A stretch of DNA of 63,949 nucleotides from Candidatus Dormiibacterota bacterium (GCA_035569855.1 DATMMH010000223.1:1-63949); one strand, 5' to 3'. Counted from the stretch's first letter, positions 4,013 to 38,388 are shown. Translations and numbers: made by a program. Notes: generated by a model not told the origin, from the letters alone.

Positions 4013-5041
4013 TTAGCCGACGTAGCCCTTCCGGTGGAAGTAGTTGGCGTTGTAGAACTCGAGGACCAGGTCCCCGTAAACGGCCGGGGGATAACGCGGC
4101 GAGTCATCCGGCCCGGTGCAGCTCGGCAGGCATTCGATCACCGCCGCCGGCGTCGGGCTGTAGAAGAAGGCGATCGAGTAGCGATCGGCGCCGGATTCGT
4201 TCAGCACCGCATGCGGCGTGGAGAGGAAGCGGTCGTTGGACCAGCGCTTCATCATGTTGCCCAGGTTGACCAGGAACGTGCCCGGGATCAACGGAGGCGC
4301 GAGCCACTCTCCGGAGGGCAGCCGGACCGCGAGTCCGGGCACGTCCGTCCGCGCCAGGATCGTGATGAACGAGTTGTCCGTGTGCGGACCCTGGCCGAAC
4401 TGCTCCTCGTCGCTCACGTCCTGCGGCGGGTAGTGCAGGAAGCGCAGGTTGACGTGCGCCTCCCCGGCGAAGAACGGGGCGAAGTAGCCGGCCGGCATGC
4501 CCAGCGCGCGGGCCAGTACCGGCAACATGCGCGCGCCCACCGCGTCGAGCGTCTTGAAGTAGGTCACCATCGCCGCGCGCATGGCCGCGTGCCCTTCCGG
4601 CCACCGGTTGCGCCCACGCAGCGGGGTGCCCGCCAGGACGTCGGGATGATCGGCGGCGCGGTCGTGGCTGATGAAGAAGCTCTCGTTGAAGTTTGGCCGC
4701 GTGGCCTTGTGGACGGTGGACGCCTTCTGGATGGACTGGTTCACCGGCAGGTAGCCGATGTTGTTCTCGTTGAGCGACAGCCGCATCTTCTCCTCGAGCG
4801 GCAGCGCGTGGAACTCGCGGGAGGCCGCGAAGGCCGCGTCCACCACCTCGTCCAGCACGCCGTGGCCCGCGAGGTAGAAGAAGCCGACGGTCTCGCTGGC
4901 GTGCCGCACCTGGGCCGCGAGGGCCTCGAGCGCGGCCGGGTCGCCGGGGTCGGAGCGGAACGCGGGGGAGAAGTCGATGACCGGGATGGCCCGCGTCGCC
5001 TCCTCGATGTCCTTCACCGCCAGGGCCTTGAGGATGTTCAC
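4013..5041 (-). CDS. 2-oxoglutarate/Fe(II)-dependent oxygenase (isopenicillin N synthase-like family)
   Basis: HTDNSF (HxD), distal His in STPHAV and RYSIAFF (RxS) motifs are present. GTG 5041 is preceded by GGGAGG 7 nt upstream. The listed ORF 4013..5266 has an Arg-rich shadow N-terminus. Confidence 0.85.
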   Translation of the reverse strand: MNILKALAVKDIEEATRAIPVIDFSPAFRSDPGDPAALEALAAQVRHASETVGFFYLAGHGVLDEVVDAAFAASREFHALPLEEKMRLSLNENNIGYLPVNQSIQKASTVHKATRPNFNESFFISHDRAADHPDVLAGTPLRGRNRWPEGHAAMRAAMVTYFKTLDAVGARMLPVLARALGMPAGYFAPFFAGEAHVNLRFLHYPPQDVSDEEQFGQGPHTDNSFITILARTDVPGLAVRLPSGEWLAPPLIPGTFLVNLGNMMKRWSNDRFLSTPHAVLNESGADRYSIAFFYSPTPAAVIECLPSCTGPDDSPRYPPAVYGDLVLEFYNANYFHRKGYVG

Positions 5042-5147
5042 GCGCGAGCCTCCCGGTGCGGATCGTAGCGCATCCCGGCGACGGCGGCCAGCACCGGTGG
5101 GCGGCGGACGCCCCGGCCTGGACCGCGCCGAGGGTCCGCCGCCTCGA

Positions 5148-5429
5148 TCAGCAGTTCGGGATCGCCCGCAGCCGCGCCTCGATCTGGTCGCCGACCTTGA
5201 GGTCCTGCAGAGTCTCCTTCGAGGCCTGAAACTCGTGGGTCTTGCCGTCCGCCTCGACGACGGCAACCCGGCCGCCGGCCTCGTCGACCCGGACGACCTT
5301 GCCCTCCACCTTCTGGGGGGCTCCCGCCTTCATCTGCTCACACGTGGGCTTGCTCTGACCCGCCGCGAACCCCGCCCAGAGCGGGACCGCCAGCATGACG
5401 CCCATTGCCACGGCCGTGTACGGTCTCAT
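5148..5429 (-). CDS. small exported hypothetical protein
   Basis: 93-aa ORF with signal peptide MRPYTAVAMGVMLAVPLWAGFAAG, followed by a beta-rich domain (KVEGKVVRVDEAGGRVAVVEADGKTHEF). Confidence 0.6.
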   Translation of the reverse strand: MRPYTAVAMGVMLAVPLWAGFAAGQSKPTCEQMKAGAPQKVEGKVVRVDEAGGRVAVVEADGKTHEFQASKETLQDLKVGDQIEARLRAIPNC

Positions 5430-5444
5430 GATCTCCTCCAGCGG

Positions 5445-5666
5445 TTAGTGTCTGGTGATGTCGTAGATGGCGCCGGCCGCGGCGCCGACGCCGGTTCCGA
5501 TCAACGCGCCCTTGCCCGCCCCGTAGCCGGTGCCGGCGCCGACCGCGGCGCCCGCTCCCGCCCCGACCGCGGCCCCGCCCAGCGTTCCGCACGCGGTGGC
5601 GGTCAGCGAGATGAGCGCGAGACCGATCACGGCGGATGCCTTGCTCTTCGTCTTGGTCGTCGTCAT
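5445..5666 (-). CDS. glycine-zipper lipoprotein (Rick_17kDa/Gly-zipper type)
   Basis: ATG 5666 follows AAGGAGG by 6 nt. Lipobox LTATAC is present, followed by a G-x3-G repeat tract (GAAVGAGAGAAVGAGTGYGAGKGALIGTGVGAAAGA). Confidence 0.7.
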   Translation of the reverse strand: MTTTKTKSKASAVIGLALISLTATACGTLGGAAVGAGAGAAVGAGTGYGAGKGALIGTGVGAAAGAIYDITRH

Positions 5667-5902
5667 GGTCGACCTCCTTGCCGGGTGCACAACGCAACGG
5701 CCGTGCCACGAGCCTTGGCCGCGACCCTCCCGCGCAACTCCTCGCCACGTCGATCGGCGCGTCCGCGCGCGCGAGCAGTCGCGAGAAAATCCTACGCGGC
5801 GGTCGAGGAAAGAATTACTTCACCGAGGCTCTTGCTTCGCCGCGGCCGGTGGGTGATTCTTTCCCGGCCGCCGCTGCGAACGCCGCGCTCCGAGGGAGAG
5901 AC

Positions 5903-6685
5903 ATGGGACAGCTCGATGGCAAGGTCGCGCTCATCACGGGCGCCAGCAAGGGAATCGGGCGGGTGATGAGCCGCCTCTTCGCGCAGGAGGGCGCCGCGGT
6001 GATCTGCGCGGCCCGGAGCCGGGACCTGGTGGCGGAAACCGCGGCCCTCATCGAGGCCGACGGCGGCCGGGCGCTGGCGGTGACCGGCGACGCGGCCACC
6101 GAGGCCGACGTGCAGCGGATGGTGGAGGCCTCGGTCAAGGCCTTCGGCAAGCTCGACACCCTCGTCAACAACGCGGGCGACGGCGGACCGACCAAGCGGG
6201 TGCAGGAGTACACCACCGACGACTGGTTCTACACGATCAACTCCTGCCTCACCAGCTCCTACATGTGCATCCGCTTCGCGGTGCCCGCGATGATCAAGGC
6301 GGGCGGCGGCGCCATCGTCAGCGTCTCGTCCACCGCTGGCCGCCGCGGGCTGCCGTTCCGCATCGGCTACTGCTCGGCCAAGGCCGGGCAGGTCGGGATG
6401 ACCTACGGCATGGCGCTCGAGCTGGCCCCGCACAACATCCGGGTCAACGCCATCGCGCCGGGCGCGGTCGCGGGCGACCGGATCGACCGGGTCATCGCCG
6501 GGCAGGCGGAGGTGCGCGGGGTGGCGCTCGAGGACATGCGGCGCAACTTCGTCGAGCGCGCGCCGCTCAAGCGCATGTCCACCGCGGAGGACATCGCGAC
6601 GCTGGCAGTATACCTCTGCAGCGAGGCGGCCAAGAACCTCTCCGGCCAGTGCATCGCGGTCACCGCGGGCGAGCCCGCGGTCTGA
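5903..6685 (+). CDS. SDR-family oxidoreductase
   Basis: TGASKGIG cofactor motif, NNAG and YCSAKAG (YxxxK) are present. The ATG at 5903 was chosen within shadow-extended ORF 5636..6685. Confidence 0.9.
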   Translation: MGQLDGKVALITGASKGIGRVMSRLFAQEGAAVICAARSRDLVAETAALIEADGGRALAVTGDAATEADVQRMVEASVKAFGKLDTLVNNAGDGGPTKRVQEYTTDDWFYTINSCLTSSYMCIRFAVPAMIKAGGGAIVSVSSTAGRRGLPFRIGYCSAKAGQVGMTYGMALELAPHNIRVNAIAPGAVAGDRIDRVIAGQAEVRGVALEDMRRNFVERAPLKRMSTAEDIATLAVYLCSEAAKNLSGQCIAVTAGEPAV

Positions 6686-6698
6686 GCGGGGGCGCGCC

Positions 6699-8621
6699 GT
6701 GAAGCCAAGCGCCGGCCGCCTCGCCGTCTTCCTGTTCGTCTTCGCTTCGGCCGCGACCGCCCAGTCGCCGACCGATTCCGGCTGGCCCACCTACGGCAAC
6801 GATCCCGGTGGGGCCCGCTACTCGCCGGCCGAGCAGATCGATCGAACGAACGTGGCGCAGCTTCGGGTCGCGTGGACGTACCGGACCGGCGCGCTCGACG
6901 CGGCCACCCCGCTCAACCGCAAGGCCGCGTTCGAGGCCACGCCCATCCTGGTCGACGGCAAGCTCTTCCTGAGCACGCCGTACAACCACGTCATCGCGCT
7001 CGATCCGCGGAGCGGCGCGAGGCTCTGGGAGTACGACGCCGCCCTCGATCTCTCGCACGGCTACTCCGAGGTCACCTCTCGAGGCGTGGCGGCCTGGCGG
7101 GACCCGACCGCCGGGCGGTCGTGCCGGCTTCGCATCTTCATGGGCACGCTCGACGCCCGGCTCATCGCGCTCGACGGCGACACCGGGAAGCCCTGTGCCG
7201 ACTTCGGCGCGGGTGGCCAGGTCGATCTCACTCGTGGAGTCGACCTTCGCGACCTCGGCAACTACCAGGTGACCTCCGCTCCCGCGGTGGCCGGCGACCT
7301 CGTGATCGTCGGCTCGTCCATCGGCGACAACCGGGCGGTGGACGTCGAGCGGGGAATCGTGCGCGCCTTCGACGCCCGTTCGGGCGCGCTCCGCTGGACC
7401 TGGGACCCGATTCCCTGGGCGAGCCAGACCACTCCGCGCACCGGCGCGGGCAACGCCTGGTCGACCGTGTCCGTCGATCCGGAGCGCGGTCTGGTCTTCG
7501 TCCCCACCGGCAGCGCCAGCCCCGACTACTTCGGCGGCGTTCGAAAGGGCGACAACCGGTGGGCCAATTCCGTCGTCGCCCTGCGCGCGGCCACCGGCGA
7601 GCTCGTCTGGGGGTTCCAGGTCGTCCACCACGATCTCTGGGACTACGACGTCGCGTCCCAGCCGACGCTCTTCACGTGGCGGGACCGCACGCCCGCCATC
7701 GCCATCACCACGAAGATGGGGCGCGTATTCATCCTGGATCGCGTGACCGGTACGCCGCTCATCCCGGTGGAGGAGCGCCCGGCGCCCGCGAGCGACGTCC
7801 CCGGCGAGGAAGCGTGGCCGACGCAGCCCTCCTCCGGCATCTCGGTCGTTCCGGAGCGACTCACGCCGGACGACGCGTGGGGCGCCACCGAGGCCGATCG
7901 CACGTGGTGCCGCGACCGGATCGCGGCCTTGCGCTCGGAGGGCATCTTCACGCCCCCGAGCCTGCGGGGCACCGTGGTGTTCCCGGGCCACGTGGGCGGC
8001 GTGAACTGGGGCAGCTCGGCCTACGATCCGGCCCGCCACCTGCTCTTCATGAACACGAACCGCCTGGCCATGACGGTGCGGCTCATCCCGCACGACAAGC
8101 TCGCGCTGGAATCGGCCCACGGCACGAGCGACGAGCGCCTGCGCGCGGAGCTGGCCCTGCAGGCGGGCACGCCGTACGCGATGCGCCGAGTGCCGCTGCT
8201 CTCTCCCGGCGGGACGCCGTGCAATGCGCCGCCGTGGGGCACCCTCGCCGCGGTGGACTTGTTCTCGGGCAAGACCGCGTGGGACGTGCCGCTCGGCTCG
8301 CCGGCGTACAGCACCTTCCGATGGATGCTGGTGTGGCTTTTCCGGCCCGAGCTGCTCCGGGCCGGCAGCCCGAATCTGGGCGGACCGATGGCGACCGCGG
8401 GCGGCCTCGTCTTCAGCGCGGCCTCCATGGACGACCATCTCCGGGCCTTCGACTCCTCCACCGGGCAGGAGGTCTGGAAATACGCGCTGCCCGCGGGCGG
8501 CCAGGCGACGCCGATGAGCTATCGCCTCGACGGACGCCAGTACGTAGTCATCGCGGCGGGCGGCCACGGCAAGCTCGGCACGACGTTGGGCGACTACGTC
8601 GTCGCGTTCACCTTGCCCTGA
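6699..8621 (+). CDS. PQQ-dependent dehydrogenase (glucose/quinate/shikimate family), soluble periplasmic form
   Basis: 640 aa with signal peptide MKPSAGRLAVFLFVFASAATAQ. WPTYGNDPGGARYSP and repeated W-containing propeller motifs are typical of quinoproteins. Confidence 0.85.
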   Translation: MKPSAGRLAVFLFVFASAATAQSPTDSGWPTYGNDPGGARYSPAEQIDRTNVAQLRVAWTYRTGALDAATPLNRKAAFEATPILVDGKLFLSTPYNHVIALDPRSGARLWEYDAALDLSHGYSEVTSRGVAAWRDPTAGRSCRLRIFMGTLDARLIALDGDTGKPCADFGAGGQVDLTRGVDLRDLGNYQVTSAPAVAGDLVIVGSSIGDNRAVDVERGIVRAFDARSGALRWTWDPIPWASQTTPRTGAGNAWSTVSVDPERGLVFVPTGSASPDYFGGVRKGDNRWANSVVALRAATGELVWGFQVVHHDLWDYDVASQPTLFTWRDRTPAIAITTKMGRVFILDRVTGTPLIPVEERPAPASDVPGEEAWPTQPSSGISVVPERLTPDDAWGATEADRTWCRDRIAALRSEGIFTPPSLRGTVVFPGHVGGVNWGSSAYDPARHLLFMNTNRLAMTVRLIPHDKLALESAHGTSDERLRAELALQAGTPYAMRRVPLLSPGGTPCNAPPWGTLAAVDLFSGKTAWDVPLGSPAYSTFRWMLVWLFRPELLRAGSPNLGGPMATAGGLVFSAASMDDHLRAFDSSTGQEVWKYALPAGGQATPMSYRLDGRQYVVIAAGGHGKLGTTLGDYVVAFTLP

Positions 8622-8670: not shown

Positions 8671-8994
8671 ATGCCGATGACCTTTGCTCGTCCTAGGGGC
8701 TGGTGGGTGGCGCTCCTCACCGGCGTCGTGGTGGCTCTGTTCAGCCCGCTCGTCCACGCCTGTCCTTCCGACCCGTCCCGGACAGCCGCCTTCTACGACG
8801 ATCCCGATTTCGACGACGTCGTCGACTTCATCCACTCGAGCGCCGGGGTCGTCGCGATCACCACGACGCTCCCCAAGCCCACGCTCCGCACCCAGGGCGT
8901 GGTGGCCGACGCGGAGGACGTGTGCCCGGCGGCCACCCCCGGCGTTTCTCCCCCCACGCGCTCGCCTCCGGTCTCGCCGATCCCTTCGCTCTGA
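8671..8994 (+). CDS. exported hypothetical protein (FYDDPDFDDVVDF motif)
   Basis: ATG 8671 gives a signal peptide MPMTFARPRGWWVALLTGVVVALFSPLVHA followed by Cys. I recognise no family. The C-terminus is Pro-rich. Confidence 0.45.
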   Translation: MPMTFARPRGWWVALLTGVVVALFSPLVHACPSDPSRTAAFYDDPDFDDVVDFIHSSAGVVAITTTLPKPTLRTQGVVADAEDVCPAATPGVSPPTRSPPVSPIPSL

Positions 8995-9070
8995 TCCGTG
9001 CCACGAAGGCGATCGAGACCCCAGCAGCCGCCGTGCGCCACCGCGCGCGCGGTGGCGGGAGGAACACGAA

Positions 9071-9376
9071 ATGAAGCGCATGATGATCTACGCGATGGTC
9101 GGAGTTTGCACGATGGGCGTGGGCGTTGCGTCCGCGCAGGCGGCCGAGCTCACCAACCAGGGCACCGCCACCACCGACGAGGCCAAGATGCCCTCGACCG
9201 CCGAGTTCGCCAACGGTCCGGCCGGCGGCGGCGCCACGCTCGGCTCGAAGGATCACATCCCGACCGGCTCGGAGTTCGCCAACGGACCGATCGGAGGAGC
9301 ACAGACCGACCCGAACGAGCGCCGCATGCCCTCCGCCGGGGAATTCAGCAACGGCCCCACCGGCATCAGCAAGTAG
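9071..9376 (+). CDS. small secreted protein with three EF(A/S)NGP repeats
   Basis: ATG 9071 follows GGGAGG. Signal peptide MKRMMIYAMVGVCTMGVGVASAQA is present. Three repeats: MPSTAEFANGPAGGG / IPTGSEFANGPIGGA / MPSAGEFSNGPTGIS. Confidence 0.65.
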   Translation: MKRMMIYAMVGVCTMGVGVASAQAAELTNQGTATTDEAKMPSTAEFANGPAGGGATLGSKDHIPTGSEFANGPIGGAQTDPNERRMPSAGEFSNGPTGISK

Positions 9377-32128: not shown

Positions 32129-33865
32129 TCAGTTGGCGCGTGGACGGGCCGCCGCAGCACCGGGCTTCTCCGGCGTCGGCTTCCAGGCCGCCACCATCCG
32201 ATCGGCGCGGGTCGCCTGGTCGTCAGACAGCGTGTTCCTGATCGCATCGCGCGCCTGACGCGCGGTGTCCGCCTCCTGGCCGAGCAGCCCCTGGGCGGCC
32301 AGGCTGAACCACATGTAGGCGAGCACCGGGTCGCGCTCCACGCCCTGGCCGTTGGCGTACCGCACGCCCAGATTGAACTGGGCGAAGGCCACGCCCTGCT
32401 GGGCGGCGCGGCGATACCAGTTCACCGCCTCCGCGAAATCCTTCGTGACTCCGTCGCCGTTGGTGTAGCGGAGGCCGAGCTGATACTGCGCGGGCGCCAG
32501 CCCCTGCTCGGCGGCGCGCCGATACCACCGCACCGCCTCCTCGGCGTCCTGGGGCACGCCCTCCCCGTTGGCGTAGCGAAGGGCGAGCTGATACTGGGCC
32601 CCCGCGGAGCCGCGCTCGGCCGCGCGTCGCAGCGGCGGGACCTCCCGGGCCGCGTTGCCGACGCTCTCGGCCGGCGCGCTCGGCAATTCGCGCGGGCCGA
32701 CGCGGACCTCGGGTGGAACGACGGGGGCGCCGCCAGTACCGGCTGGCGGCGGACTGCCGCTCGCCGCGGAGGTGCTCGTGGACTCGGGCGCCTTGGCAAT
32801 GGCCGGCGGCGGCTCGGCGACCGGCGGGGCCGCTTGCCCTACCGGCTCGGGCGGCCTCGTTGGCTCCTCCGGAGCGCGGCCGCGCCCGGCGGCATCACTC
32901 GCTGCACTCTGGCGTGAGCTGTCAGGAGTGACGGGCGGGGCGACAACAGCGACCGGCGAGGCGACGGCAGCCTCTGGTGGGACGACCGCAGCGGTCGGCG
33001 GGGCGACGGGAGCTACCGGCGCGATCTCGGCGACCGGGGACGCGTCGCTCGCGGACTCTGGCGACTTTGTGACGGGCTCGCTGGGCTTCACCTCTGGTGC
33101 CGCCGCGACCGGTGGTACCGGCGCAACCGGCTCGCTGGTGTCGGCCTCCGGCACCGCCGCAACCCGCTGGCTCGTGTCGAGGTCCGGCGCAGTCGTGGCG
33201 GGTACGGGCGGCGCTTTCACGGGCTCGGGTTCAGACGCCGGAGCCGCGGGCGCCGGAGCTTTGGCAACGGGCTCCGGCGAGGCTGCGGGAGGCGTCGACG
33301 CTTCGGATCGCTCCGTCGGGGCGGGTGTCGGCGACGGGGGCGGCGCCACGAGGGCCGCCGGGGGCGGGCTCGGAGCGGGTTCGGGTGCCTGCTCGGCGGC
33401 CGGTGGGGCCGCGCTCAGGGCAGCGAGCCGCCCCTCGCGGCGCATCTGATCGAGCGCGACCTGTGCGGCCCGATTACCTTGCGATGCCGCGCGCTCGTAC
33501 CACATCGCGGCCTGCCGATCATCGCGCGCGACACCCCGGCCATAGGCGTAGAGAAAGCCCAGACGGAACTGCGCGTGCACGTCGCCCTGCCGCGCGGCGC
33601 GCCGGTACCAGGCGATCGCCTCGGTGGCATCCGGGGGCACGCCTTGCCCGCGCTCGTGCATGAAGCCCACGAGGAACTGCGCGGCGGAGTTCCCGCCGTC
33701 GGCGAGCGGCCGCCACTCGCGGTAGGCCGTGGCATAGTCGGCCGTGTCGTAGGCGCGCCGGCCGTCTTCGAAATCGGCCCAGGCGGGAATCGTCGGGAGC
33801 AGGCATGCCAGCGCCAGCAGCGCGGCGCCGGAGGACAGAACGGGGCGGGGGCGCATCCCCTTCAT
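32129..33865 (-). CDS. Sel1-repeat protein with long Pro/Ala-rich central linker
   Basis: It has a signal peptide. Sel1 repeats occur at both ends (AQFLVGFMHERGQGVPPDATEAIAWYRRAARQG..., AQYQLALRYANGEGVPQDAEEAVRWYRRAAEQG...). The central linker is about 260 aa of low-complexity sequence. Confidence 0.85.
   Translation of the reverse strand: MKGMRPRPVLSSGAALLALACLLPTIPAWADFEDGRRAYDTADYATAYREWRPLADGGNSAAQFLVGFMHERGQGVPPDATEAIAWYRRAARQGDVHAQFRLGFLYAYGRGVARDDRQAAMWYERAASQGNRAAQVALDQMRREGRLAALSAAPPAAEQAPEPAPSPPPAALVAPPPSPTPAPTERSEASTPPAASPEPVAKAPAPAAPASEPEPVKAPPVPATTAPDLDTSQRVAAVPEADTSEPVAPVPPVAAAPEVKPSEPVTKSPESASDASPVAEIAPVAPVAPPTAAVVPPEAAVASPVAVVAPPVTPDSSRQSAASDAAGRGRAPEEPTRPPEPVGQAAPPVAEPPPAIAKAPESTSTSAASGSPPPAGTGGAPVVPPEVRVGPRELPSAPAESVGNAAREVPPLRRAAERGSAGAQYQLALRYANGEGVPQDAEEAVRWYRRAAEQGLAPAQYQLGLRYTNGDGVTKDFAEAVNWYRRAAQQGVAFAQFNLGVRYANGQGVERDPVLAYMWFSLAAQGLLGQEADTARQARDAIRNTLSDDQATRADRMVAAWKPTPEKPGAAAARPRAN
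32636..33415 (-). repeat. low-complexity Pro/Ala/Val/Glu/Ser-rich coding region
   Basis: Residues ~151-410 of the Sel1 protein (APEPAPSPPPAALVAPPPSPTPAP..., IAPVAPVAPPTAAVVPPEAAVASPVAVVAPPV...). Confidence 0.7.
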
Positions 33866-35129: not shown

Positions 35130-35342
35130 TCAGCGCGCCACCCGCACCCCTGCATTCGGGCCCGACGGTCCGTCCTGGGCCAGCCACCGGCCGAGGCGAA
35201 TCAGGACCACGCCGAGGCCGGACCATACCCCGCGCCGAGCCAGCCGGGCCGAGCGCAGGCGTCCGATCCGCTCGCTCTCCGCCCGCAGATCGGCAAGACG
35301 GAGCGCCGCCATCTTCTCGGTGACGTAGACTCCAAAGTCCAT
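35130..35342 (-). CDS. small hypothetical protein (70 aa)
   Basis: ATG 35342 follows AAGGGAGG and lies 18 nt after the upstream stop. It has a hydrophobic stretch (VWSGLGVVLIRLG). The longer listed ORFs are shadow-extended. Confidence 0.35.
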   Translation of the reverse strand: MDFGVYVTEKMAALRLADLRAESERIGRLRSARLARRGVWSGLGVVLIRLGRWLAQDGPSGPNAGVRVAR

Positions 35343-35359
35343 CGTGCGCGCGCCTCCCT

Positions 35360-35764
35360 TCACGCCGCCCGGCTGAGCCGTCCGGCGGGGTGGGCGGGTC
35401 CGGCCGCCATCCCCGGCCGCACCGGCCGGGGCTCCTGGGGCAGGAGGACGATTCGCACCCGCGGCGGATCCTGCCGGTCGAGCCGTCGGAAGACATCCTG
35501 GGTGATCCGCGTGACCGTCCCCACCAGCCGCTCGTGGTGAAGCGGAAGCCGCACCGACACGACCCACTCTCCCGACCCTCCGACTCGCACATCGGGCGCC
35601 GCCGCGGCGCCCAGCTCACGATGGATCGCATCGGTGAGCGCGATCTGCCGCGCCACCCCGGTATCGCGGCGCCGGGCCCGCCGGTCCATGACCCACACCA
35701 GCGCCCCGATGGCCAGGAACGGCAGCATCGCCGCCAACATCGTGATCTCCGGTTGCACGTTCAT
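35360..35764 (-). CDS. N-terminally membrane-anchored hypothetical protein
   Basis: ATG 35764 follows GGAGGAGGAGAGG. The TM helix is MLAAMLPFLAIGALVWV. 134 aa. Confidence 0.5.
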   Translation of the reverse strand: MNVQPEITMLAAMLPFLAIGALVWVMDRRARRRDTGVARQIALTDAIHRELGAAAAPDVRVGGSGEWVVSVRLPLHHERLVGTVTRITQDVFRRLDRQDPPRVRIVLLPQEPRPVRPGMAAGPAHPAGRLSRAA

Positions 35765-35868: not shown

Positions 35869-36834
35869 CTACGCGGGCAGCGGATGCAGATCGGGCCGGC
35901 AGCTCGTGCAGGGCGAGAAGCCGGCGGCCTCCGCGCGCTCGCGCGTGCCGAAGAGCGTGAGCACCGACAGGGGCTGGGAAGAAAGCGAGCCGCAGGTGGG
36001 CACACAGTACTCGCGCTCACCATCCATCAGGGTGTACATCGCCTCGCGGCGCACCTTGAAGTCGTGATGCGCGGCGACCGTCCTCACGCCCTCCACGGCG
36101 AGCAGCCGCTGCTTGAGCTCGACGTGCTTGCCCGCGTACCCGGTGAGCGCGCCGGTGCTGCCGATCACCCGATGGCAGGGGATGACGATCGGCAGCGGAT
36201 TCCAGCGCAGCGCCTGTGCCACCGACCGCACCGCGGAGGGGGCACCGATGCGCGCGGCGATCCCCGCGTACGACGCGACCGCCCCGTAGGGCAGCGCCGC
36301 GGTGGCTTCGAGCACGCGCCGCTGGAACTCGCTCCGCATCCGGCCCGAGTCGAGCGGCCAGTCGAGCCGAGCGCGACGGCCTTCGAGATACTCGATCAGC
36401 TCCGCGCTCAGCGTCTCGGTCGCGGCGCGATCCTCCACCGCGTCCTCACCGAGGAGGCGCCGGACGTGGCCGGGGATCGAGCCGGCCTTGTGGAGGTACT
36501 GCACGAGGGCCACGCCGTGTTCGGAGCGGGCGATGAGCACCGGGCCGAGCGGTGACGGGAAGATCCCGTACCCGACCATGCGGGAGCGCAGATCGGCCAG
36601 CCGGGACACGAGCTCCGCGCGCGCCAACGTTCCATCTTCCCCGGCGAGCGGAGCCGCCCGCAGCTCGCCCACCATCCCGTCCACGACCCGGTAGTGCCCG
36701 AGCTCCTCCCGGCACGAGCGGCAGGTCGCCACGTGCCCGTCCACGCGCTCGACGGCGCGCGCGCTCGCTTCGCCGGTGGCGACCGCCAGCAGGTCGGGCT
36801 CGATCTCGTCGCAGACGGAGCGTGGTGTCCTCAT
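35869..36834 (-). CDS. soluble zf-HC2 anti-sigma factor fused to O6-alkylguanine-DNA alkyltransferase (Ogt/MGMT) and an Ada-type Cys4 Zn domain
   Basis: ATG 36834 overlaps the sigma stop (ATGA). The N-terminus shows C8...HVATCRSC, the MGMT core shows NPLPIVIPCHRVIGS, and the C-terminus shows YCVPTC...FSPCTSCRP. No TM helix is present. The listed ORF 35869..37164 is shadow-extended. Confidence 0.8.
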   Translation of the reverse strand: MRTPRSVCDEIEPDLLAVATGEASARAVERVDGHVATCRSCREELGHYRVVDGMVGELRAAPLAGEDGTLARAELVSRLADLRSRMVGYGIFPSPLGPVLIARSEHGVALVQYLHKAGSIPGHVRRLLGEDAVEDRAATETLSAELIEYLEGRRARLDWPLDSGRMRSEFQRRVLEATAALPYGAVASYAGIAARIGAPSAVRSVAQALRWNPLPIVIPCHRVIGSTGALTGYAGKHVELKQRLLAVEGVRTVAAHHDFKVRREAMYTLMDGEREYCVPTCGSLSSQPLSVLTLFGTRERAEAAGFSPCTSCRPDLHPLPA

Positions 36835-37346
36835 AAGTGCCCCTCGAGGCCTCGCCGGATCTTCCGGAGGGCCTGGAAGACGTGGGCGCGCGCGCTCTCC
36901 TCCGAGCAACGCAGGCTCGCCCCGATCTCCGTGTATTCCAGCTCGTGCATCTTCCGCATGATGAAGGCCACGCGCTGCTTCTCCGGCAGCGCACCGATCA
37001 TCCGTTCCATCCGCTTCCGCGCCTCGTCCGCCAGCAGCTGCCCATCGGCCCGCTCCGAGGCACCCGCCGGCGCATGCTGGGCCACCTCGGCGTACGCCCG
37101 TCGCCTCCGCGACAGGCCCCGGAAGTGGTTTCGCCCGAGGTTCGTCGCGATCGTGAACAGCCACGCGCGCACGTTCGCGCCGGGTGGCAGCGCGCGGTAG
37201 GCCCGGAACGCGCGCAGAAACGTCTCCTGCGAGAGATCGTCGGCGTCGCTCGCGCGGGCCGTGATCCGCAGCAGGTAGCGCCGTATCTCCGCGTGGTGAG
37301 CCGCCACCACCGCCTCGAACGCATCCTCTGCCATCACCCTGCCCAT
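36831..37346 (-). CDS. ECF-type RNA polymerase sigma factor
   Basis: Region 2 reads ADDLSQETFLRAF...WLFTIATN and region 4 reads LPEKQRVAFIMRKMHELEYTEIGASL...ARAHVFQALRKIR. The start is 37346, 37334 or 37391. Confidence 0.85.
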   Translation of the reverse strand: MGRVMAEDAFEAVVAAHHAEIRRYLLRITARASDADDLSQETFLRAFRAYRALPPGANVRAWLFTIATNLGRNHFRGLSRRRRAYAEVAQHAPAGASERADGQLLADEARKRMERMIGALPEKQRVAFIMRKMHELEYTEIGASLRCSEESARAHVFQALRKIRRGLEGHL

Positions 37347-37394
37347 TGAGACCCCGGAGGGGACCGGTCGTGAAACGGACGACCCGGCCATCGC

Positions 37395-37409
37395 GCTAAC
37401 TCCGTGCCA
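37395..37409 (-). promoter_or_regulatory. sigma54-type -24/-12 element candidate upstream of the ECF sigma gene
   Basis: The minus strand reads TGGCAC-GGAGT-TAGC against the consensus TGGCAC-N5-TTGC. The GG and GC dinucleotides are correctly spaced and there is one mismatch. It overlaps the Cache gene stop codon. Confidence 0.25.
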
Positions 37410-38388
37410 CCTCGACGGTTTTACCGGCCGCCGCGGCCTGCTGCTCGCGGACGAACCGCATGGCAACCACGGTACTGACGGCCAGGCTCATCCCGACCGA
37501 GGCCAGGAGGGTAGCGACCAGCGTCAAGAGCACCGCGCGCTGGCCTTCGAGGATGTGGCGGACCGATGCCGCGTAGATCAGATTGACGTGCAGCGTGGGC
37601 ATGACCGCCTGGGTCACCAGCCACTCGTCCTCGTCCATGCCGACGATGCCGTCCCCTTCGCGACGGCCCAGCTCCTCGACGATCGGGTGGCGCTTCCAGT
37701 CCTGCTGGGTGACCTGGCGCGTCTTCGGATCCAGGTAGATCGCCTGCCGGTCGGCGTCGATCATCACCAGCCAGCCGCCGGGGCCGGCGGCGGCCTGCTC
37801 GATGGCCTCGATCGAGGCCTGCAGCCGGATGCTGCCGAGCAGGTAGGCGACGATCTGCTGGTCCATGCGGATCGGGACCGCCGCGCCGACGATGAAATCG
37901 CGGGTGGCCCGACCGAAGACGATGCCCGAGACCGCGGGCCGCTGGGTCTGGATCGCCTGCTGGAGCAGCGGGCGGTCGTGGTAGCGCAGGTCCAGGTTGG
38001 AGCTGCCGTCGGGCGAGGTGAGCGGACTGAACGCGAGCGGCCGGCCGTCGGGGGACACCACGAACAGGGTGGGCATCTGCAGCATCGCGCGCATCGCGTC
38101 GATCTCGCGTTGGAGCGCCCGCGGCTCGTGCGAGGCCCAGCTCTGGGCCAAGTAGGCCGCCATCGGGCCGAGCGCGTCGAGCTTGTCGCGCACCTGCGCG
38201 TCGCCGAGGCGGGCAAGGACGCGCACGATCTCCTGGCGCTGGGCGCGCGAGTCCGCGAGGGCCTGCGGCTTCAGCTTCGTCGTCCAGGCCAGCCCCACCA
38301 CGGTGAGGGACAGGAACGAGACCACCACCCACGTGGAGAGCAGGAAGAACACGTGCGACCAGCGAAGGCCCGCCCCCGGCAGTCCCAT
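37396..38388 (-). CDS. Cache-like extracytoplasmic sensor protein without output domain
   Basis: The layout is TM1 (VFFLLSTWVVVSFLSLTVVGLAW), a periplasmic domain of ~250 aa (LFVVSPDGRPLAF...YHDRPLLQQA...) and TM2 (LLTLVATLLASVGMSLAVSTVVA). The protein ends about 20 aa after TM2. Confidence 0.7.
   Translation of the reverse strand: MGLPGAGLRWSHVFFLLSTWVVVSFLSLTVVGLAWTTKLKPQALADSRAQRQEIVRVLARLGDAQVRDKLDALGPMAAYLAQSWASHEPRALQREIDAMRAMLQMPTLFVVSPDGRPLAFSPLTSPDGSSNLDLRYHDRPLLQQAIQTQRPAVSGIVFGRATRDFIVGAAVPIRMDQQIVAYLLGSIRLQASIEAIEQAAAGPGGWLVMIDADRQAIYLDPKTRQVTQQDWKRHPIVEELGRREGDGIVGMDEDEWLVTQAVMPTLHVNLIYAASVRHILEGQRAVLLTLVATLLASVGMSLAVSTVVAMRFVREQQAAAAGKTVEVARS

Follow-up and report, generated by a model that had tools for sequence, protein, structure and literature searches.

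The textbook example of a repair protein turned into a regulator by its own irreversible alkylation is the Ada response. Ada carries an N-terminal Zn(Cys)4 module that accepts methyl groups from methylphosphotriesters, an AraC-type helix-turn-helix (HTH), and a C-terminal O6-alkylguanine-DNA alkyltransferase domain (MGMT), and to our knowledge no other wiring of this kind of regulation has been characterised. Extracytoplasmic function (ECF) sigma factors, meanwhile, rank with the most abundant signalling systems of bacteria, and for many of their groups no input is known. Here we describe, in a stretch of 63,949 nucleotides from a Candidatus Dormiibacterota bacterium (GCA_035569855.1, DATMMH010000223.1:1-63949; 70% G+C; hereafter the window), an operon in which the gene for an ECF sigma factor overlaps that for a protein (hereafter the fusion) that joins a class I zinc-binding anti-sigma domain to an MGMT core and an Ada-type Zn(Cys)4 module. 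It seems to us highly probable that the two form a sigma/anti-sigma pair and that the alkyl-acceptor modules of the anti-sigma factor are active. We further propose, with a little better than even confidence, that the pair is autoregulated, that the single-turnover alkylation repair protein is itself the anti-sigma factor, and that the signal consists in alkyl lesions using this protein up.

The pairing has already been catalogued. A 2022 review lists ECF122 among the groups "without cognate anti-sigma factors", under "unknown mechanism", with an example from Cellulomonas sp. Root930 (WP_057211282.1), and its entry for the group, citing Casas-Pastor 2021, gives a 6-O-methylguanine DNA methyltransferase as the conserved neighbour (PMC8999054). 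Among the literature searched, ECF122 is named only there: the main text and preprint of Casas-Pastor 2021 mention neither the group nor methyltransferases, the supplements of the 2020 anti-sigma classification paper contain no MGMT term, and keyword searches of the literature brought up no paper on an anti-sigma factor of the alkyltransferase type. Sigma factors go unmentioned in a 2023 review of the alkyltransferase family, in which endonuclease V and histone-like fusions are the only ones recorded besides Ada (PMC10779285). An earlier, sequence-only reading of this locus had been aware of no described example, which is correct for the mechanism and the three-domain architecture but not for the sigma-MGMT neighbourhood. 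New relative to the literature searched are the likely role of the MGMT partner as an anti-sigma factor, its three-domain architecture, the promoters, and the regulon.

Five co-directional genes occupy the minus strand between 35130 and 38388. The sigma gene (36831..37334) and the fusion gene (35869..36834) share an ATGA in which the stop codon of the former overlaps the start codon of the latter, an arrangement that suggests translational coupling. A gene for a membrane protein precedes the pair and two small genes, p134 and p70, follow it. Between 34900 and 38700 we found no sigma-70-type promoter on the operon strand, and no intrinsic terminator. The sequence-only reading had described the first three of these genes, the ATGA overlap, and a soluble protein that opens with a zf-HC2 anti-sigma signature, continues into an O6-alkylguanine alkyltransferase core, and ends in a four-cysteine module. 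All of this withstood the analysis that follows, as did its account of regions 2 and 4 in the sigma factor, whose start codon nevertheless had to be moved.

The fusion is a protein of 321 amino acids with four Pfam domains, each above its gathering score: zf-HC2 at residues 8-42 (22.8 bits versus a cut-off of 22.2), Methyltransf_1N at residues 89-162 (25.7 versus 21, E 1.6e-5), DNA_binding_1 at residues 169-250 (99.6 bits, E 9e-29), and Ada_Zn_binding at residues 275-315 (29.3 versus 23, E 8.9e-7), the last covering only positions 26-65 of a 65-position profile. We divide it into the anti-sigma domain (residues 1-88; 36571..36834, minus strand), the alkyltransferase with its N-terminal and catalytic domains (residues 89-252; 36079..36570), and the Ada-type zinc module (residues 253-321 and the stop codon; 35869..36078); the codon of the acceptor cysteine, Cys220 of the PCHR motif, is at 36175..36177. 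NCBIfam likewise assigns the alkyltransferase core and adds a weak match to antisig_RsrA (E 8.8e-4). The fusion is not an Ada orthologue, as it scores 97 bits against the Ada equivalog, whose cut-off is 345, and has no HTH_AraC or HTH_18 match in Pfam at E values up to 1. Nor does it contain a hydrophobic stretch (maximum Kyte-Doolittle mean over 19 residues, 1.12), and we therefore consider it soluble.

Relatives were gathered in a search of 5.8 billion proteins. At least 120 protein clusters, from JGI, ENA, Logan, and NCBI assemblies, are 64-98% identical to the fusion, nearly all of them 317-331 amino acids long, and the named ones are labelled Methylomirabilota or Rokuibacteriota. No split fusion gene was found among the orthologues, and the conservation of length in at least 120 clusters from four independent sources rules out a frameshift or assembly artefact. 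Across 116 aligned relatives, conservation is 100% at C8, H34, C38, C41, C220, H221, C277, C309, and C312, and 99% at C281. In a broader family set of 68 sequences, with identities reaching down to 28%, Y189, R203, N212, C220, H221, R222, Y233, K241, and E248 are invariant, and Pfam finds DNA_binding_1 and Ada_Zn_binding in 68 of 68 members and zf-HC2 in 60 of 68 (best E 8e-8). Residues 89-252 thus appear to be a catalytically intact MGMT core. None of the three outcomes that the sequence-only reading had named as refuting its view was observed, namely a lack of significant MGMT or Ada matches, loss of the PCHR and C-terminal cysteines in orthologues, or orthologues with separate genes. An exhaustive HMMER search extended the three-domain relatives down to 33% identity and also yielded proteins with only the anti-sigma and MGMT parts and proteins with only the MGMT and Ada_Zn parts.

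A profile of the family was compared with solved structures. The anti-sigma domain, whose zinc ligand pattern is C8, H34-x3-C38-x2-C41, matched those of RsiW (5wuq_C, E 2.9e-4), ChrR (2q1z_B, E 2.5e-3), and RslA (3hug_B, E 5.4e-3). The alkyltransferase part matched Ogt of Mycobacterium tuberculosis (4bhb, E 1.6e-37) and the C-terminal domain of E. coli Ada (1sfe, E 6e-36), and query residues 268-317 aligned to residues 29-77 of the N-terminal domain of Ada (1adn/1u8b, E ~1e-8). In this last alignment C277, C281, C309, and C312 of the fusion correspond to C38, C42, C69, and C72 of Ada, and the CxPxC and PCxxC motifs of the Zn(Cys)4 site are present, while the first helix of N-Ada is missing. 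Single-sequence searches of the PDB with the N- and C-terminal pieces were weak, and the N-terminal piece drew spurious matches to designed "Cake" repeats; we trust the family-profile search over these.

The AlphaFold model of the fusion (mean predicted local distance difference test, pLDDT, 86.7; predicted TM-score 0.70) places four helices in the N-terminal part, at residues 12-20, 25-35, 39-60, and 68-85 (pLDDT 59-92 by block), and a zinc module of the Ada type with a pLDDT of ~95. The fourth helix joins the first strand of the MGMT N-domain through a link of two residues. In Foldseek the MGMT part superimposed on 1sfe (TM-score 0.86, root-mean-square deviation 2.3) and on 4zye (TM-score 0.88), and structures of alkyltransferase-like (ATL) proteins were among the matches. 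The match of the whole model to ChrR was weak (E 0.42) because the MGMT domain dominates such a search, which says little on the anti-sigma and Ada zinc domains.

The linkage to a sigma gene extends well beyond the window. Genomic context was examined for 12 relatives, each of which has an ECF sigma gene directly upstream, as have 20 further MGMT loci. The 12 comprise seven Rokubacteria loci (L001-L007), a three-domain protein (P0300) with 31% identity, and four two-domain MGMT+Ada_Zn proteins; in P0300 and the two-domain proteins the sigma gene is immediately upstream, overlapping or within 8 nt. In a survey of MGMT loci from GTDB genomes, which is a sample and not a census, an ECF sigma gene ends at the MGMT start in 20 of 76 non-Rokubacteria loci, all 20 from Actinomycetota or Chloroflexota (they are among L008-L080; examples are L012 4534-5582 and L060 4462-5537). 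Their sigma factors are 31-42% identical to that of the window, those of Actinomycetota 31-38%. The stop/start overlap of 4 nt recurs in 13 of these 20 and, among the seven Rokubacteria loci, in six. The sequence-only reading had asked whether the sigma group conserves MGMT-fused anti-sigma factors: the sigma-MGMT linkage is indeed widespread, but in Actinomycetota and Chloroflexota the anti-sigma part is trimmed to its last helices. When the two-domain MGMT+Ada_Zn family is aligned to the three-domain family with hhalign, the alignment begins at query position 44, which indicates that the two-domain proteins keep anti-sigma helices 3-4 without helices 1-2 and the zinc ligands. The sigma-linked MGMTs of Actinomycetota and Chloroflexota have 194-222 amino acids and no zinc motif, and by a crude estimate with a regular expression they carry an N-terminal extension of 28-60 residues before SPxG, as against ~10 in unlinked MGMTs; these short extensions match no recognisable family. 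The anti-sigma zinc site therefore appears to be dispensable in other lineages. PCHR, in contrast to that site, is present in all 28 sigma-linked proteins scored, and the acceptor cysteine is also kept in 68 of 68 and 40 of 40 sequences of the family sets.

Some of these operons contain further genes. In L034 the MGMT stop codon is overlapped by a gene for an Oxygenase-NA protein (5489-6238; PF09859, E 6e-84), a member of an AlkB-like family of predicted DNA-damage oxygenases, and in L207 genes for an Oxygenase-NA protein and a thioesterase lie upstream, with a second, stand-alone MGMT gene directly downstream of the pair (1747-2544, 5067-5522). In Chloroflexota, by way of a side observation, a gene for a YCII-related protein follows the sigma-MGMT pair in L012 (5558-6034) and L015 (2773-3150; confirmed with Pfam for L015), and probably in L027 (5708-6067), a downstream cargo that differs from that of Rokubacteria.

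The sigma factor of the window has both conserved regions (Sigma70_r2, E 1.9e-15; Sigma70_r4_2, E 1.9e-12) and scores 83.8 bits against TIGR02937 (sigma70-ECF). Its start had been placed at 37346, but the ATG at that position falls within the -10 box of a candidate promoter and is not conserved among orthologues. What is conserved is (G/A)TGATG, 5-13 nt past a GTCT core, which in the window places the ATG at 37334, in agreement with the GenBank product of 167 amino acids (HXA95975.1). Because the start codon follows the GTCT core of the -10 box so closely in the window and in L001-L006, the sigma mRNA probably has little or no leader.

The promoter motif, GTTTCAC-N14-GGGGTCTCA, is present exactly twice in the window (0.00 copies expected by chance), and relaxed searches revealed no further site in the 64 kb. 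One copy, P1 (37347..37376, minus strand), is directly before the sigma gene; the other, P2 (35803..35832, minus strand), is between the fusion stop and p134, 38 nt before p134, and is followed by a strong ribosome-binding site, GGAGGAGGAGAGG. With a -35-like box, ~17 nt, and then GTC, both copies have the layout of an ECF promoter and are candidate promoters. TTTCAC-N14-GG(G/T)GTCT occurs at both homologous positions in L001, L002, L004, L005, and L006, whose fusions are 52-78% identical to that of the window and whose spacers have diverged. The motif was also found at the P1 position in eight metagenome operons and at the P2 position in twelve metagenome contigs. It is clade-specific, as the promoters of a more distant clade (L204-L207) are not of the TTTCAC type; L204-L206 have an apparent TGCAAC -35 box with a similar -10 box (GGTGTCT or GGGTTCT). 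The sigma genes of other sigma-linked MGMTs have a related motif, TCTCAC-N~16-CGTT(C/T), directly before the start codon. Promoter specificity seems to have drifted within the sigma-MGMT family.

The first gene of the P2 unit, p134 (35360..35764, minus strand), encodes 134 amino acids with a single N-terminal transmembrane segment at residues 5-28. A homologue is found behind P2 in each of L001-L006 and in many loci from metagenomes, and p134 is thus conserved with the module across Rokubacteria. The next gene, p70 (35130..35342, minus strand, within an open reading frame at 35130..35567), encodes 70 amino acids (MDFGVYVTEK...) and was likened by eye, with no score, to the third small gene of L002 (7692-7910). 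Neither protein has a Pfam match. As a side observation, an alpha/beta-hydrolase gene follows the fusion gene in three Rokubacteria operons of 52-54% identity (L004 ~5960-6865, L006 5978-6877, and L007 2588-3439), lying in L004 and L006 between the fusion gene and P2; the window has no such gene. The motif HG(F/Y)P(Q/E)T...DLRGYG of these hydrolases recalls epoxide hydrolases or haloacetate dehalogenases.

To look beyond the operon, public metagenome contigs were scanned for GTTTCAC-N14-GGKGTCTCA, which returned at least 80 loci. In 21 of them the match was the sigma-fusion operon itself, with the motif at the P1 or P2 position. About 30 matches were on low-G+C contigs, showed nothing recurrent, and are taken as chance. 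(One such contig, L094, with a G+C content of 0.32, has three exact copies within 390 nt, at 8838-9227, presumably an unrelated tandem repeat that matches by chance.) The remaining group consists of ~26 matches on high-G+C contigs, in which the motif lies 3-60 nt upstream of recurring genes, in the correct orientation. These genes encode three subtypes of DinB_2/DUF1706 (ClbS-like)/MDMPI_N proteins as well as SRPBCC (Polyketide_cyc2), ABM-like, and DUF2652 proteins, and on four contigs a DinB-like gene is followed by a stand-alone MGMT gene of 175 codons with PCHR. Several families recur in diverged versions with different spacers, and the sites are therefore not one locus sampled repeatedly. 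The regulon protein clusters carry the NCBI labels Methylomirabilota, Rokuibacteriota, or Dormibacteraeota. Several of the genes (DUF2652, ABM-like) begin 5 nt past the motif, an arrangement that resembles that of the sigma gene. The DinB superfamily includes thiol-S-transferases, and ClbS hydrolyses a DNA-alkylating warhead; by analogy, the DinB/ClbS-type genes would fit a defence against electrophiles. The inferred regulon and the related operons with Oxygenase-NA and second MGMT genes lend independent support to the alkylation theme.

These observations can be assembled into the following scheme. In the resting state, residues 1-88 of the fusion would hold the sigma factor in a 1:1 complex, a ratio that the stop/start overlap would favour through translational coupling. 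The trigger would be the irreversible acceptance by Cys220 of an alkyl group from O6-alkylguanine or O4-alkylthymine; a second possible input would be alkylation of the zinc-bound Cys277 by a methylphosphotriester or directly by an SN2 methylating agent. The spent fusion would then change shape or be degraded, and the sigma factor would be freed. In alkyltransferases that have become alkylated, the N- and C-domains are known to come out of contact, and up to 20-35 degrees of thermal stability is lost; they are destabilised through this interface and then degraded in vivo, and methylation of Cys38 of Ada is a conformational switch (PMC4605297 and PMC10779285 for the former, PMC10779285 for the latter). 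As helix 4 of the anti-sigma domain is welded to the very MGMT N-domain that alkylation destabilises, a direct path to sigma release would exist. Free sigma factor would transcribe its own operon from P1, replacing the consumed repair protein, and would also transcribe P2, with its small membrane proteins, and the DinB/ClbS-like, SRPBCC, ABM-like, DUF2652, and stand-alone MGMT genes. With the lesions removed, fresh repair protein would bind the sigma factor again and so close the loop. Since an MGMT core with its acceptor cysteine and a helical N-terminal piece is the sole feature that all sigma-linked forms share, the most economical candidate for a common sensor is Cys220. Many lineages also have the Ada zinc module, which would act as a second input.

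A number of points weigh against this proposal. We infer that the fusion binds the sigma factor, accepts alkyl groups, and releases the sigma factor on alkylation. The zf-HC2 score of the window protein is barely over its threshold, and the matches to anti-sigma structures are only modest (E 3e-4 to 5e-3). Co-transcription of MGMT and sigma genes is equally expected if MGMT is merely regulon cargo. The genes immediately under P2, p134 and p70, have no known link to alkylation, and the classical alkA, alkB, and aidB were not among the dispersed regulon genes found, a set that would be no less in keeping with a general response to electrophile or thiol stress. The regulon contigs are tied to the lineage by composition and NCBI taxon labels and not by a shared genome, and the conservation of the promoter boxes is partly by construction, because the motif scan returned only sites with perfect boxes.

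How do other explanations fare? The anti-sigma domain might be a thiol switch of the RsrA type, in which the zinc site C8/H34/C38/C41 senses oxidants or soft electrophiles and the MGMT and Ada modules are fused repair cargo. The complete conservation of the four ligands, the weak antisig_RsrA match, and the spacing of 26 between C8 and H34, which is that between C11 and H37 of RsrA, would all be in keeping with such a switch, as would a regulon rich in DinB/MDMPI-type proteins, which are thiol-S-transferase-like and typical of thiol-stress regulons. The same ligand pattern, however, occurs in RsiW, which is not redox-regulated, and a thiol switch gives no reason for two alkyl-acceptor modules to have stayed fused across 30-98% identity. 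The two-domain proteins and those of Actinomycetota and Chloroflexota have neither helices 1-2 nor the zinc ligands, yet their genes are still linked to, and overlap with, a sigma gene. As sigma-linked forms without any of the zinc ligands exist, the zinc site cannot be the common sensor, and we regard this explanation as unlikely; modification of the zinc-site thiolates, which the sequence-only reading had cited for other zinc-binding anti-sigma factors, is likewise unlikely to be the general mechanism. A different possibility keeps the MGMT or Ada module as the sensor but takes lesion binding, not alkyl transfer, as the signal: reversible docking on damaged DNA would compete with or distort sigma binding. 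Both acceptor modules do bind DNA, and there is no variation in Y189, R203, and N212, which contact it. ATL proteins, which have the MGMT fold and are pure lesion binders, have lost the acceptor cysteine, whereas every sigma-linked protein scored has kept it. This conservation would also be explained by the repair function alone; on balance we hold signalling by binding to be improbable.

It is also conceivable that the fusion senses nothing, with the sigma factor controlled elsewhere, MGMT being the first gene of the regulon and the N-terminal domain a constitutive buffer. The filing of ECF122 under no cognate anti-sigma factor and unknown mechanism (PMC8999054) agrees with this, as do the short extensions of the Actinomycetota and Chloroflexota proteins with their lack of a recognisable family, and co-transcription by itself is no proof of regulation. 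But the Rokubacteria proteins have a full four-helix zinc anti-sigma domain of which shorter forms retain helices 3-4, the N-terminal extensions are specific to sigma-linked MGMTs, overlaps of 4 nt are typical of sigma/anti-sigma pairs, and a buffer without input would leave the autoregulated P1 loop pointless. We accord this alternative, too, a low probability. Lastly, the sequence-only reading had, in its title, grouped the upstream membrane protein (37396..38388, minus strand; 330 amino acids) with the pair, and one could imagine that it is the real sensor, relaying an extracellular signal to the pair. That reading had rightly recognised a Cache-like domain between transmembrane segments and no output domain. 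The protein itself has no Pfam match, but three homologues have a precomputed match to PF02743; its transmembrane segments are at residues ~10-39 and 284-313; and its AlphaFold model (pLDDT 76.7) shows a double-Cache fold between the two helices, double PAS-like with a long N-terminal helix, for which Foldseek returned Tlp3 (6w3o), KinD (4jgp), Mlp24 (6ior), and DctB (E ~1e-9, TM-scores 0.63-0.73), as well as PctA, also at E ~1e-9. In the window, as in L001, L104, L122, L141, and L157, the gene immediately precedes the pair and shares its strand. These, however, are only fusions of at least ~75% identity, for which synteny at ~75-90% identity is expected from descent alone, and all 120 listed of the 160 homologues found are themselves at least 74% identical. 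The gene is absent from the operons of 66% fusion identity or less that show the upstream region, namely eleven at 51-66% (L002-L007, L123, L124, L137, L148, and L162) and L204 at 31%. Its chain ends ~17 residues past the second transmembrane segment and hence lacks an output domain on the cytoplasmic side, the anti-sigma factor is a soluble protein, and the 61 nt that separate the Cache stop from the revised sigma start contain P1. Its restriction to close relatives and the intervening P1 rule out membership of the module, and a sensory role for it is very improbable.

A few observations on the surroundings can be added here. In L001, on a 5.4-Mb ENA contig, the Cache-like gene is present as two open reading frames (4443-5419) of 208 and 118 amino acids that jointly cover the 330-residue protein, which is a frameshift, a pseudogene, or an assembly error. 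The GenBank contig of the window (HXA95973-5; locus tags VN323_10450-10465) is deposited as Candidatus Dormibacteraeota, whereas most other named relatives of the fusion and of the Cache-like protein are labelled Methylomirabilota or Rokuibacteriota; the label may stem from a binning error. Further downstream, 32129..33865 (minus strand) encodes a protein of 578 amino acids with Sel1-like repeats, as judged by eye, at both ends and a low-complexity middle of ~270 residues rich in proline, alanine, and glutamate; the local G+C content reaches 0.74.

If the consumption of the repair protein is indeed the signal, each repaired alkyl lesion would use up one anti-sigma factor and free one sigma factor, providing stoichiometric counting and exact replacement. 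Irreversible covalent self-modification by a DNA lesion would be a new class of input to a sigma/anti-sigma pair, and such a "consumption sensor" would join proteolysis, partner switching, redox, and conformational change among anti-sigma mechanisms. The DinB/ClbS-like, SRPBCC, ABM-like, and DUF2652 proteins would become candidates for protecting soil bacteria from naturally occurring alkylating agents.

Such wiring would mean, too, that the Ada adaptive response had been invented twice, independently, and the comparison with E. coli Ada is instructive. Both proteins have two suicide alkyl-acceptor modules, with the four zinc cysteines aligned and the PCHR core in common, and in both, if our proposal is right, irreversible self-alkylation activates the protein's own gene and a protective regulon. 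The order in the fusion, however, is reversed, with MGMT first and the Ada zinc module C-terminal, and both the first N-Ada helix and an AraC-type HTH between the acceptor modules are lacking. The fusion is proposed to act by letting an ECF sigma factor go from its anti-sigma domain and not by binding promoters directly, and the regulon genes found are the DinB/ClbS-like, SRPBCC, ABM-like, DUF2652, and MGMT genes rather than alkA, alkB, and aidB. With the anti-sigma proteins in the pairs RsrA/SigR, ChrR/SigE, and RslA/SigL, and with RsiW, the fusion shares the C/H...H-x3-C-x2-C ligands and a four-helix class I domain encoded beside a sigma gene. Its profile resembles those of RsiW, ChrR, and RslA, and like RsrA and ChrR it is soluble. 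It differs from the soluble zinc anti-sigma factors in that the proposed sensor is a DNA-repair enzyme and not the zinc site or a cupin domain, and in that relatives dispense with the zinc site entirely. Compared with Ogt/MGMT proteins, the fusion has the same fold and all catalytic residues, and the instability that follows their reaction, at the interface of the N- and C-domains (PMC4605297), is the transduction step that we propose. Ordinary Ogt, however, stands alone and is unregulated, and the known fusions are with endonuclease V or histone-like proteins.

Finally, the closest catalogued system is ECF122. The sigma factor of the window, too, adjoins a 6-O-methylguanine DNA methyltransferase gene, and the Actinomycetota pairs fit the description of the group; the pairs of Actinomycetota and Chloroflexota are probably the situation that the literature has recorded under that name. 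ECF122 is listed without an anti-sigma factor, whereas the MGMT partner in the window has both a complete zinc anti-sigma domain and a zinc module of the Ada type. Because the Rokubacteria partner carries that domain, the MGMT neighbour is likely to be the anti-sigma factor. It is possible, at slightly less than even odds in our estimation, that an entire ECF clade in Rokubacteria/Methylomirabilota, Chloroflexota, and Actinomycetota, probably ECF122, is controlled by suicide DNA-repair anti-sigma factors. The Rokubacteria fusion would then serve as a Rosetta stone, in which a recognisable anti-sigma domain attached to the MGMT neighbour supplies a concrete mechanism for ECF122.

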